Positions 559 to 8,361 of a stretch of 28,538 bases of DNA are shown in pieces. How positions within the stretch are numbered: position 1 is the stretch's first letter; every line of letters starts with the position of its first letter. The stretch covers positions 1 to 28,538 of the forward strand of contig JANTHQ010000001.1 of NCBI GenBank assembly GCA_024762375.1, given 5' to 3'. The notes beneath the pieces are model-generated. The model searched no databases and was not told the DNA's origin. It was given only the letters and a program-made list of their open reading frames with translations. This DNA comes from Anaerolineaceae bacterium (GTDB lineage Bacteria > Chloroflexota > Anaerolineae > 4572-78). A program made the translations under genes and the position numbers.

Positions 559-915
559 ATGCAGAATCCGTATATTTTTGTGGGCATTCTTGTGTTGGCT
601 GCTTTGCTTCTACCCGTAGTAGGGTTGGGAGTGGCGTGGTTTTTGCGCCCGCACAAACCGAATCCTTTTAAACAGAGCACATACGAATGTGGTATTGAAC
701 CCATTGGCGATGCCTGGGTACAGTTTAAAGTATCATACTACATTTATGCGCTCGTTTTTGTGGTATTCGATGTGGAATCAGTTTTCCTGTTTCCGTGGGC
801 CGTTGCATACAACTTTTTGCCACTGTATGCCTTGCTGGAAGTCATCATTTTCGTGGCGATTCTGTTTTTCGCACTGGTATATGCTTGGCGCAAAGATGCG
901 CTTAAATGGATATAA
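559..915 (+). CDS. nuoA: NADH-quinone oxidoreductase subunit A
   Basis: 118 aa, three TM segments, YECGIEP loop, FVVFDVE and FPWA motifs; strong SD. Confidence 0.96.
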   Translation: MQNPYIFVGILVLAALLLPVVGLGVAWFLRPHKPNPFKQSTYECGIEPIGDAWVQFKVSYYIYALVFVVFDVESVFLFPWAVAYNFLPLYALLEVIIFVAILFFALVYAWRKDALKWI

Positions 916-944
916 AACCGGTTTAGCAGGTCTATCCGGTTTTT
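914..944 (+). terminator. Hairpin with U-tract between nuoA and nuoH (partial terminator or RNA-stabilising stem)
   Basis: AAAACCGG (914-921) pairs with CCGGTTTT (936-943); T-run ends at 944. Confidence 0.45.
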
Positions 945-976
945 AATTTGCCTGTGGTACATGGAGACACTCGCTT

Positions 977-5253: not shown

Positions 5254-6780
5254 ATGAACATACCGTTCGTACTCACCTTAATTCTCTTGTTTCCGCTGTT
5301 GGGCGCAGTTGCAATTCTGTTCATCCCCGGCGAAAACGAAAAAGGCATTAAAAACCTGGCAATCATCGCCAGTCTTTTCCCGCTCCTTTTTTCCATCCTG
5401 ATTTGGTTCGGATACGATTTCAATCAGGGCGGCTACCAATTTGTTGAAAAATACGCGTGGATACCCAGCCTCGACATCGAATACTATCTCGGTGTTGATG
5501 GGTTGAGTATCCCCTTGGTATTTTTGAGCGCACTGCTCAGCACATTGGGCTTGTGGTATAGCGCGGGCGTCATCAAATACCGCGTCAAAGAATTCTTCGT
5601 GCTATTCCTGCTGCTCGAAGCCTCACTGACCGGCGTGTTCGTGGCATTGGACATGGTTCTGTTCTACTTCTTCTGGGAAATTGAACTGGTGCCGATGTTC
5701 CTGCTGATTGGCATTTGGGGCGCGAAAAAAGACCGCCCGCAATATTCTGCCATCAAATTCTTCCTCTACACTTTGGTGGGGTCGGTGGCGATGTTGCTGG
5801 CCTTTATCGCCATTTACCTGAACACCGGTTCGTGGGATATGACCCAAATTCCCAGTATGCTGAGCTTCTCGCCGTCACTGGCAACACTCGTTTTCTGGGC
5901 AATTTTCATCGGGTTCGCTATTAAAGTGCCCCTCTTCCCGTTCCACACCTGGTTGCCCGATGCACACACGGCCGCACCGACTGCCGGGTCGGTCATTCTG
6001 GCCGGTGTCCTGCTGAAACTCGGCGGGTACGGTATGATTCGCATCCTCATCCCGTTCTTCCCAACAGTCTTCCAACAATCGGCTGTCATTGTAGCCTCAC
6101 TGGGCATCATCAGCATGATTTACGGCGCGCTGGTCAGTATGGCGCAATGGGACTTGAAACGGCTCATCGCCTACTCCTCTGTGAGCCATATGGGCTATTT
6201 TGTGCTCGGACTGGCCGCAGCCGTTTATTTTGGCGATATGACCAGCCGCACCATCGCCCTGAACGGCGCTGTGCTGCAAATGTTCAACCACGGTATCATC
6301 ACCGGCGGGTTATTCTTCTTGGTCGGTGTGGTGTATGAACGCACGCACACCCGCGACCTGAAAGCCTTCGGCGGGTTGAGCAAACATACTCCGCGGTATT
6401 ACGCAATTATGATGGTAACCGCTTTCGCATCGCTGGGGCTGCCCGGATTGGCCGGTTTCATCAGCGAATTCCTGATTTTCCGGGGCGCTTTTGCCACCAT
6501 GCCGGCAATGGCCATTATCGGCGTGATTGCTATCGTGCTGACCGCCGCATATATCCTTTGGAAAATCATCCAGTTCGTTTTCCTCGGCGAATTCAGCCCC
6601 GAAAAATGGGGAAAAATCTTCGATGCGCATCACTGGACCCGTGGCGAAGATATCGCCCCGTTTGAAGTATGGACGATGGTTCCCCTGCTGATTGGTATGA
6701 TTTTAATCGGCGTCTATCCGTCAATCATCTTGAATACCATCAACTTTGCCAGCAATGCAATTTTGAACGCCGCGTTTTAA
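5254..6780 (+). CDS. nuoM: NADH-quinone oxidoreductase subunit M
   Basis: FWEIELVPMF, IKVPLFPFHTWLPDAH, LLKLGGYG, GFISEF motifs. ATG 5254 after GGAGG is preferred over TTG 5236. Confidence 0.96.
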   Translation: MNIPFVLTLILLFPLLGAVAILFIPGENEKGIKNLAIIASLFPLLFSILIWFGYDFNQGGYQFVEKYAWIPSLDIEYYLGVDGLSIPLVFLSALLSTLGLWYSAGVIKYRVKEFFVLFLLLEASLTGVFVALDMVLFYFFWEIELVPMFLLIGIWGAKKDRPQYSAIKFFLYTLVGSVAMLLAFIAIYLNTGSWDMTQIPSMLSFSPSLATLVFWAIFIGFAIKVPLFPFHTWLPDAHTAAPTAGSVILAGVLLKLGGYGMIRILIPFFPTVFQQSAVIVASLGIISMIYGALVSMAQWDLKRLIAYSSVSHMGYFVLGLAAAVYFGDMTSRTIALNGAVLQMFNHGIITGGLFFLVGVVYERTHTRDLKAFGGLSKHTPRYYAIMMVTAFASLGLPGLAGFISEFLIFRGAFATMPAMAIIGVIAIVLTAAYILWKIIQFVFLGEFSPEKWGKIFDAHHWTRGEDIAPFEVWTMVPLLIGMILIGVYPSIILNTINFASNAILNAAF

Positions 6781-6819
6781 GTTGTAACTGACCTACACTC
6801 CTTAGGCAGGAGGTTTACA

Positions 6820-8361
6820 TTGAACACATTTATGCTATTGTTACCCGAAACACTTTTACTTGTGTTCGCCTTTGTGGTCTTCACACTCGATATGATTTGG
6901 AAGACCCGCGAAGGAAATCAGGCGAACACACTGGCAGTCATCACCCTCATCGGCGCATTGAGCGCATTCGTGGCAACCATTTTTGTATGGGCACAAGCCA
7001 ATAGCGGCGCGGTGCAACTCGCCGTCATCGCCACCGACCCGGACGGTCAAGTGCCGATGCTGGCCATGGATAGCTTTGCAATGTTCTTTAAAGTGTATGC
7101 CACACTCACCGTTGCGCTGGTAGGATTGCTGGCCACCGACTATGTTCGGGAAAAAATCCAATTCCCCGGCGAATTTTATGCCATGATGCTGCTCGCGGGT
7201 TTGGCGTTGATGCTGGTTGCCAGTTCGACCAATTTGGTGATGATTTTTCTCGCGTTTGAGTTTCTGTCCATCACCAGTTACCTGCTGACCGGCTACCTGC
7301 GCGACAATGCTTTCTCCATCGAAGCCGCACTGAAATACTTCCTTTACGGCTCGGTTGCCAGTGCAGTAATGCTCTTCGGCTTCTCGCTGATTTACGGGGC
7401 AACCGGCACGCTCGATTTGCACGGCATTGCCGAGGCGCTCATCACCGCTGACCCGACCATCACCCATGTGCTCACCATTCCGGCACTGGCGCTGATTATC
7501 GTTGGGTTGGGCTTTAAAATTGCACTGGTTCCGTTTCACCAATGGTCGCCGGAAGCCTATCAGGGTGCGCCCACCCCTGTAACCGCATTCTTATCCGTTG
7601 GGCCGAAAGCCTCCGGGTTCGCACTGCTGGTGCGCGTGCTGATTATCGCCTTTCCGGCGTTCGCCACGGTTGCCAACAGCAATTGGGTGCTACTTTTAAC
7701 CGGCATATCCATTTTAACGATGACCTTCGGCAATGTGGTTGCCATGTGGCAAAAAGACATCAAGCGGCTTTTTGCCTATTCCAGTATTGCTCAAGTTGGT
7801 TATATGCTCATCGGGGTAATCGCTATCGCGCCGCAGTTTATCGGCGGCACACCGACTGTTACCGGCTGGGCACAAGGGTTAAACGGCTTGCTTCTTTTCC
7901 TGTTTGGTTATCTGTTTACCAACCTTGGTTCATTCGCCATCATTTTGGCGGTAGAAAACAATACGGGTTCCACCGATATTGACGCATATAACGGACTGAT
8001 AAAACGCTCGCCGTATCTCGCCAGCGCATTTGTGATTTTCCTGCTCTCACTCATCGGCATTCCTCCCACAGCCGGTTTTATGGGCAAACTGCTTGTTTTC
8101 GGCGCGGCAGTTGAACAACAAATGTACGTGCTGGCAGCCATCGGTGTGTTCAACAGCGTTATCTCGCTGTATTACTATTTCGGTATCGCCCGCAAAATGT
8201 TCTTCAGCCCGGCTCAAGAAGACAAACCGATTCACGTCAGCGGCTCGCTGAACACAGTGGTGGCGGTATCGCTGGTGCTGGTACTGGCAATTGCCATTTT
8301 TGCCCAGCCATTCATCACCTGGGTCAGCGGCTCGACGCAATTACTGGCATCAACGTTTTAA
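6820..8361 (+). CDS. nuoN: NADH-quinone oxidoreductase subunit N
   Basis: EAALKYFLYGSVAS, GFKIALVPFHQWSPEAYQGAPTP, GFMGK motifs; TTG start after AGGAGG. Confidence 0.96.
   Translation: MNTFMLLLPETLLLVFAFVVFTLDMIWKTREGNQANTLAVITLIGALSAFVATIFVWAQANSGAVQLAVIATDPDGQVPMLAMDSFAMFFKVYATLTVALVGLLATDYVREKIQFPGEFYAMMLLAGLALMLVASSTNLVMIFLAFEFLSITSYLLTGYLRDNAFSIEAALKYFLYGSVASAVMLFGFSLIYGATGTLDLHGIAEALITADPTITHVLTIPALALIIVGLGFKIALVPFHQWSPEAYQGAPTPVTAFLSVGPKASGFALLVRVLIIAFPAFATVANSNWVLLLTGISILTMTFGNVVAMWQKDIKRLFAYSSIAQVGYMLIGVIAIAPQFIGGTPTVTGWAQGLNGLLLFLFGYLFTNLGSFAIILAVENNTGSTDIDAYNGLIKRSPYLASAFVIFLLSLIGIPPTAGFMGKLLVFGAAVEQQMYVLAAIGVFNSVISLYYYFGIARKMFFSPAQEDKPIHVSGSLNTVVAVSLVLVLAIAIFAQPFITWVSGSTQLLASTF

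Follow-up and report, generated by a model that had tools for sequence, protein, structure and literature searches.

The window analyzed here is a stretch of 28,538 nucleotides, contig C1 of a metagenome-assembled genome (MAG; G000) of an Anaerolineae bacterium from a hydrothermal vent. Seven successive open reading frames on its plus strand (positions 559 to 8361), assigned with Pfam and NCBIfam models, code for the complex I subunits NuoA, NuoH, NuoJ, NuoK, NuoL, NuoM, and NuoN. The operon is very probably the source of the membrane (P) module for a second, 11-subunit complex I that lacks NuoEFG, an enzyme built from two loci whose quinone (Q) module would come from a fused nuoBCD gene and a nuoI gene on contig C118, and we infer that both modules join physically.

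The spacers along A-H-J-K-L-M-N measure 61, 19, -1, 20, 39, and 39 bp, so neither nuoB, nuoC, nuoD, or nuoI nor nuoE, nuoF, or nuoG can fit between the genes, which confirms an earlier, sequence-only reading that had seen an operon for the membrane arm alone. The same reading had likened the seven genes to the ND set of animal mitochondrial DNA, in agreement with textbook knowledge, where ND1 to ND6 are the respective counterparts of H, N, A, M, L, and J, and ND4L is that of K. It had also expected the peripheral arm to be supplied in trans, and this is borne out by the stand-alone genes on C118.

Two complex I sets in one genome

The MAG comprises 2.6 Mb in 477 contigs and is 67% complete, with 2.2% contamination. 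A search of all its contigs, a count that the sequence-only reading had proposed, found exactly two copies of each of the core subunits A, B, C, D, H, I, J, K, L, M, and N, with one canonical nuoEFG set, no FpoF, and one hydrogenase-4-like locus. The first set is a canonical 14-gene operon, including E, F, and G, that is broken across contigs C32, C331, C383, and C456 (Table 1). A gene for an aldolase of the DeoC/LacD family lies between nuoF and nuoG of this operon. The second set consists of the window operon and contig C118.

The nuoBCD gene of C118 is one frame of 826 amino acids with Oxidored_q6, Complex1_30kDa, and Complex1_49kDa domains, in which the NuoB, NuoC, and NuoD parts are joined by linkers rich in Lys, Pro, and Ala. 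The four cysteines of cluster N2 and the His and Tyr of the quinone site could be read directly in the fusion, and both 4Fe-4S motifs (CxxCxxCxxxCP) are present in NuoI. The ATG of nuoI overlaps the stop codon of nuoBCD, and the two genes are translationally coupled. The flanks of the pair are occupied by a helix-turn-helix (HTH) regulator and MoaA, with E, F, and G not adjacent. The regulator, of the ArsR/HTH type and divergent from nuoBCD, keeps its arrangement with MoaA in several families of the order, which makes it a candidate for the control of the Q-module genes.

Probable pairing of the window operon with the Q module of C118

Phylogenetic trees of the NuoD domain and of NuoH were obtained by quick IQ-TREE searches, with the Shimodaira-Hasegawa-like approximate likelihood ratio test (SH-aLRT) as the only support value. 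The stand-alone fused copies group in a single clade of the NuoD-domain tree (SH-aLRT, 99), nested among the NuoD sequences of contiguous A-B-C-D-H-I-J-K-L-M-N operons, and a long branch with a support of 100 lies between this clade and the canonical copies that these genomes also have. The NuoH tree places the window in a clade that contains only split loci (98), again among contiguous 11-gene operons devoid of nuoEFG and far from the canonical copies. The branching at the family level (f1/f4/f3+f2) is parallel between both clades.

The distribution of the two modules follows the same pattern. Among 30 relatives, all belonging to the order of the window, 24 had the NuoH of the membrane arm together with a Q module of the C118 type and 4 had neither; the two mismatching relatives are MAGs with completeness of 72 to 82%. 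As the relatives are not independent samples, these figures are a description and not a statistical test. The flanks are constant across families as well, with FemAB 5' of nuoA and the HTH regulator and MoaA 5' of nuoBCD. In a closed relative genome, the membrane-arm and Q-module loci are ca. 0.9 Mb apart. In the closed genome G024, with loci at 0.82, 1.27, and 2.20 Mb, a split-type nuoB stands alone at 0.82 Mb and nuoCD at 1.27 Mb, and we found no nuoI beside nuoCD within the stretch fetched; with nuoB and nuoCD apart and no adjacent nuoI, the enzyme of G024 would span three or more loci.

Phylogeny, co-occurrence, and locus stability thus indicate that the fused nuoBCD-nuoI of C118 is the partner of the window operon. 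The sequence-only reading had considered that one ordinary nuoBCD(EFG)I block of matching phylogeny elsewhere would reduce the case to a simple operon split. A simple split is essentially what we see, since dedicated Q-module genes lie together at another locus and their phylogeny matches; the wording fits less well, as the partner is a B/C/D fusion without EFG.

Integrity of the assembly

The operon could also be an artifact, produced by a misassembly at the nuoA/nuoH (915 to 977) or nuoH/nuoJ (2242 to 2262) junction or by binning together contigs of two organisms, and the MAG is indeed fragmented and slightly contaminated. However, Logan contigs from three hydrothermal vent metagenome runs cross both junctions with 1 to 6 mismatches; these runs may include the source sample of the window itself, so they represent an independent assembly and not independent DNA. 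We also inspected the gene order of the 80 genome loci with the most similar NuoH, and about 40 of them, from other Chloroflexota MAGs, have the order A-H-J-K-L-M-N or A-H-J-K-L-M-M-N without B, C, D, or I; the sequence-only reading had called for such a comparison of synteny in relatives. The same layout occurs in one closed genome. Genomes of the same genus hold both the membrane-arm and the C118-type loci at similar identity, and the GC contents of C1 (0.548) and C118 (0.537) fall inside the range of the genome (0.543 ± 0.024). With the Logan contigs and the loci of ca. 40 other MAGs giving the same order, the window operon is not a misassembly, and as far as sequence data go, an artifact is already refuted and retains next to no probability.

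Membrane-arm operon and its proteins

(i) Layout and signals. The sequence-only reading had pointed to a -10 candidate upstream and a terminator downstream of the operon, and both were recovered. The TAAAAT hexamer lies in a block 5' of nuoA (TTTTCA...TATGCTAAAAT) that is kept across the genus and is followed by a leader of ca. 110 nucleotides and a conserved Shine-Dalgarno sequence, AAAGGAGAGG. The terminator hairpin has a folding free energy of -22.7 kcal/mol (z score, -3.8), and none of 200 shuffled sequences was equally stable. A hairpin in the nuoA-nuoH spacer was rejected as a real structure, as its stability is no better than that of shuffled sequence (z score, -0.55). The NCBIfam subfamily models for NuoL, NuoM, and NuoN all exceed their cutoffs. 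The real starts of nuoM and nuoN may be ATG codons at 5254 and 6832, respectively, downstream of the TTG codons listed in Table 1.

Table 1. Features of the window operon, of the canonical operon, and of other loci discussed in the text
Feature	Contig	Position	Strand	Description
FemAB-family gene	C1	2-349	-	Upstream neighbor of nuoA, divergent
Sigma-70-like promoter	C1	420-448	+	TTTTCA, 17 nt, TAAAAT, extended -10 TG; consensus scan
nuoA	C1	559-915	+	118 aa; PF00507, 3e-36
nuoH	C1	977-2242	+	421 aa; PF00146, 1e-117
nuoJ	C1	2262-2774	+	170 aa; PF00499, 2e-35
nuoK	C1	2774-3088	+	104 aa; PF00420, 8e-28; start overlaps nuoJ stop (TAATG)
nuoL	C1	3109-5196	+	695 aa; NF005141, 628 bits, over cutoff
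nuoM	C1	5236-6780	+	514 aa from TTG 5236; single copy; TIGR01972, 549 bits
nuoN	C1	6820-8361	+	513 aa from TTG 6820; TIGR01770, 382 bits
Intrinsic terminator	C1	8386-8417	+	22-nt hairpin (8386-8407), 10-bp GC-rich stem, then U tract
Methyltransf_3 and metalloenzyme genes	C1	8470-9972		O-methyltransferase, then metalloenzyme superfamily
RecA-like ATPase	C1	15124-16119	-	Weak match
Sucrase/ferredoxin-like protein	C1	16385-17053	-	Thioredoxin-fold 2Fe-2S
KaiC-family ATPase	C1	21494-22327		
nuoI	C118	74-751	-	Q module
ArsR/HTH-type regulator	C118	3301-4134	+	Divergent from nuoBCD
Canonical operon, part	C32			nuoA, B, fused CD, E, F, DeoC-family aldolase gene, 5' part of G
DeoC/LacD-family aldolase gene	C32	8776-9831		Between nuoF and nuoG
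Canonical operon, part	C331			3' part of nuoG, then H, I, J
Canonical operon, part	C383			nuoK, L, 5' part of M
Canonical operon, part	C456			3' part of nuoM, then N
Hydrogenase-4/formate hydrogenlyase-like locus	C184	3-5161	-	HyfB-, HyfC-, and HyfF-like; NuoC and NiFe large-subunit fusion; both ends cut by contig
NuoE-NuoF fusion and NuoG-like protein	C319	307-3242	-	Fusion of 600 aa, then NuoG-like protein running into molybdopterin domain

(ii) Conserved residues. The proton-path residues of L, M, N, K, H, and A were named after the corresponding motifs of Escherichia coli and Thermus. Alignments to solved structures and to the paralogues show intact charges along the proton path, with the Glu of transmembrane helix 5 (TM5), the Lys of TM7, and the Lys/Glu of TM12 kept in L, M, and N, the Glu-rich loop of NuoH retained, and all the loops of NuoA and NuoH that face the Q module present, in line with the sequence-only reading, which had found the NuoH interface, the NuoA loop, and the pump residues intact. 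NuoA has an intact STYECG loop and is 41% identical to the canonical product on C32, NuoH has YEIP and the EVGRSPFDLLEADSE loop, and NuoK keeps both membrane Glu residues (GLELM and AAAEAA). NuoL has all pump residues (WEimG, KSAQFPLH, HLLTHSFFKAL, and SKDEIL), and the equivalent motifs are FWEIE, IKVPLFPFH, LLKLGGY, and ISEF in NuoM and AFEF, FKIALVPFH, GPKASG, and MGKL in NuoN. NuoH also carries a C-terminal extension of ca. 70 amino acids with one extra hydrophobic helix, which is conserved, as the matches of relatives run to residue 420.

The lateral-helix region of NuoL (window positions 4870 to 5115) contains repeat modules resembling FD..V(I/V)DG.VN. There are two in the window, a single one with which the canonical NuoL paralogue aligns, and as many as four in relatives, for a range of 1 to 4 in the clade that does not follow the presence of one or two nuoM genes.

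(iii) A membrane arm on its own. NuoL, NuoM, and NuoN are homologous to subunits of Mrp antiporters, and a role as proton pumps has been discussed for the partial nuoAHJKLMN operons that marine actinomycetes carry (PMC6676996), so the seven proteins could be imagined to form a cation/proton antiporter similar to Mrp, with no peripheral arm, or to be a relic. We regard this as highly improbable. The two proteins that build the quinone cavity and the interface to the Q module, NuoH and NuoA, are both there and have kept their conserved loops, a dedicated Q module co-occurs with the operon, and all the genes are intact and conserved over a clade at the order level. An assignment to a Mrp antiporter or group 4 hydrogenase module was likewise rejected, given that NuoH and NuoA are present and that the hydrogenase-4-like locus is a separate one on C184; the window proteins score well under the cutoffs of the Mrp and Hyf models and far under those of the FpoH, FpoK, and FpoL models.

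(iv) Neighboring genes. The two genes that follow nuoN, coding for an O-methyltransferase and a member of the metalloenzyme superfamily, hold the same position in the relatives of the genus and in one locus of family f4, and a tie to quinone metabolism is possible. In the rest of the window, a weak RecA-like ATPase, a sucrase/ferredoxin-like protein, and a KaiC-family ATPase sit amid housekeeping genes (methionyl-tRNA synthetase, a glycosyltransferase, and TPR proteins).

Electron input

In the two-locus enzyme that we propose, the first stop of the electrons would be the pair of 4Fe-4S clusters in NuoI and the next one cluster N2 of the NuoB domain, from which (mena)quinone would be reduced in the cavity formed by NuoD, NuoB, and NuoH. 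The charge and conformation changes that accompany quinone reduction would then move protons across the membrane by way of the NuoH/A/J/K channel and of N, M, and L, the three antiporter-like subunits. Reduced ferredoxin, or some other carrier of low potential, is the likeliest electron donor, in line with proposals for other 11-subunit and NDH-1-type enzymes. In favor of the two-locus enzyme, among solved structures NuoH and NuoL are nearest to NdhA and NdhF1 of the ferredoxin-dependent NDH-1: the best matches of NuoH are the chloroplast and cyanobacterial NdhA (1e-83 to 1e-79), and that of NuoL is the cyanobacterial NdhF1 (6hum_F; 6.5e-123). No nuoEFG occurs in any operon form of the clade among the loci surveyed.

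The split enzyme could instead be a second NADH:quinone oxidoreductase that borrows NuoEFG from the canonical enzyme or uses the NuoEF/NuoG-like proteins encoded on contig C319. The genome does have one canonical nuoEFG set (C32 and C331) and this fused NuoEF/NuoG-like pair, and both types of complex I are found in most relatives. However, G018 (95% complete) and two genomes of other split clades, G032 and G033, seem to have the split enzyme alone, as a search for canonical NuoB/CD, NuoH, NuoF, and NuoG found none of them in these three genomes. As they keep the enzyme where canonical NuoF and NuoG were not found, it probably works without an NADH (N) module. In addition, E, F, and G never appear in the contiguous operons of the clade, and the NuoG-like protein of C319 enters a molybdopterin domain typical of formate dehydrogenases, so we consider an NADH-dependent enzyme unlikely. 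The C319 pair itself is probably part of a NAD-linked formate dehydrogenase or the diaphorase unit of a hydrogenase. Relatives hold several NuoF paralogues similar to that of C319, with three within 12 kb in G018.

Several points weaken the case for an 11-subunit enzyme assembled from the window operon and C118. With the MAG at this level of completeness, more nuo-like or input-module genes could be missing, and the C319 NuoEF and NuoG/FdhA-like pair, or the canonical NuoEFG, could conceivably act as N-module donors. NdhS (PF11623) had no match in the genome (67% complete), which suggests that ferredoxin does not dock here in the way used by cyanobacteria. When NuoH was modeled in complex with domains B and D of the C118 fusion, the score was 0.63, against 0.56 for a control in which D was replaced, and this speaks neither for nor against the pairing. 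No RNA runs holding the locus were found.

The C terminus of NuoI is variable in the split-type Q modules (loci compared, L010 on C118 and L147, L149, L150, and L170 of relatives). The family of the window has a tail of ca. 45 amino acids rich in Lys, Ala, and Glu, and family f4 and one Chloroflexia MAG have an extension of 180 to 360 amino acids ending in a conserved helix-hairpin-helix-like domain (GIGPK..AGI.TF.QLA), while the canonical NuoI copies have neither the tail nor the extension. These appendages might bear on the identity of the electron donor.

Other complex I-like modules

The sequence-only reading had raised the possibility of interchangeable electron-input modules, in which case the membrane arm would be a shared platform on which alternative peripheral modules (canonical NuoBCDI, hydrogenase-like, or F420- or ferredoxin-linked) dock according to the conditions. 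The hydrogenase-4-like locus on C184 and the NuoEF/NuoG-like pair on C319 show that such modules exist in the genome, and independent regulation is conceivable in principle for Q and P genes that lie apart, with an HTH regulator adjoining nuoBCD. Nevertheless, the subunit counts pair strictly one to one, the C184 locus brings its own NuoH-like and antiporter-like subunits, and FpoF (PF04432) had no match in the genome (67% complete). The Q module and the membrane arm co-occur and share the same tree topology, as obligate partners would, and we saw no operator common to both loci. Interchangeable modules are therefore improbable, and this part of the earlier reading is not upheld.

As for regulation, the comparison of the regions upstream of nuoA and nuoBCD for a shared operator gave only similar Shine-Dalgarno contexts, so there is no in silico support for co-regulation. 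One may speculate that separate promoters and loci allow the P and Q modules to be made independently, with a Q module that docks on either membrane arm or stays in reserve, and that the NuoI appendages are the missing docking site of the electron donor, a scenario to which we give little credence.

Comparison with known systems

Fusions of NuoB, NuoC, and NuoD in one polypeptide, such as the one of C118, are known (NCBIfam NF009808/PRK13292), and Desulfococcus multivorans is a species in which the fused NuoBCD protein itself was detected (PMC5109826). The C118 fusion shares the three domains, but it is not the NF009808 equivalog, as it reaches 662 bits against a cutoff of 1156. Partial nuoAHJKLMN operons have been reported in the marine actinomycetes Salinispora, Streptomyces, and Kocuria (PMC6676996); these contain the same seven genes, likewise in addition to a complete nuo operon, in a phylum other than that of the window.

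The subunit set of the window and C118 is that of the 11-subunit, two-module complex I (A-B-C-D-H-I-J-K-L-M-N without the N module) (Moparthi and Hagerhall 2011, PMC3144371), of which Desulfitobacterium is an example (PMC11238625) and which has been proposed to work without an NADH module (PMC3144371). NuoH and NuoD branch among such contiguous 11-gene operons, but here the genes are in two distant loci and B, C, and D are fused. The wider question touched by this enzyme is the electron donor of the 11-subunit complex I, which the window locus makes no easier to address than do cultured organisms with the same layout.

The NDH-1 complexes of cyanobacteria and chloroplasts (PDB 6hum and 7wff), the nearest solved relatives of the window NuoH and NuoL, are also similar in that their core subunits number 11, NuoEFG is lacking, and the genes are scattered. 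They differ in several respects, as NdhS was not found in the incomplete window genome (the other subunits specific to oxygenic phototrophs were not searched for), the NuoD domain of C118 scores higher with bacterial NuoD models than with NdhH, and the host is a nonphototrophic member of the Anaerolineae.

The closest known system is the "2M" complex I of Chloroflexi, which according to a paper on Lost City Chloroflexi (PMC7117926), citing Chadwick et al. (2018, ISME J), has a membrane-arm operon and a separate nuoBCDI with C and D fused, neither with nuoEFG. The window enzyme shares the separate nuoBCDI locus, the lack of nuoEFG in both loci, and the phylum and class, but it has one nuoM where the 2M enzyme has two. 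No second nuoM lies between nuoL and nuoM in the window or its nearest relatives, nor did we find an orphan nuoM in five relatives, each of which has six antiporter-like genes for two complexes. A mark of the 2M enzyme is an insertion of ca. 26 amino acids in the lateral helix of NuoL, a region where the window has two modules and its canonical paralogue one. The ca. 30 extra residues before the last NuoL helix raised the idea of a 2M enzyme that has lost one nuoM, which we rejected because the number of modules varies from 1 to 4 irrespective of the nuoM count and relatives have no extra nuoM; a similar case has been published (PMC9040806).

The Q modules also differ, as C118 fuses NuoB too, giving a single B/C/D polypeptide. 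Stand-alone nuoB, nuoCD, and nuoI are the published form in Chloroflexi and were found in the other split clades, and within Anaerolineae the triple fusion occurs only in the order of the window and two further families, most members having B and CD. The Q-module type of the split enzyme was present in about two-thirds of the sampled genomes of the class (204 of 301). For annotation, a nuoAHJKLMN operon in an Anaerolineae MAG should be taken neither for a truncated complex I nor for an unusual one; it belongs with the stand-alone nuoB(C)D-nuoI locus, and the two together should count as a second enzyme, of the NuoEFG-less type. The enzyme of the window is the one-nuoM, triple-fused case of a split-operon layout that is already on record for Chloroflexi and common in the class.

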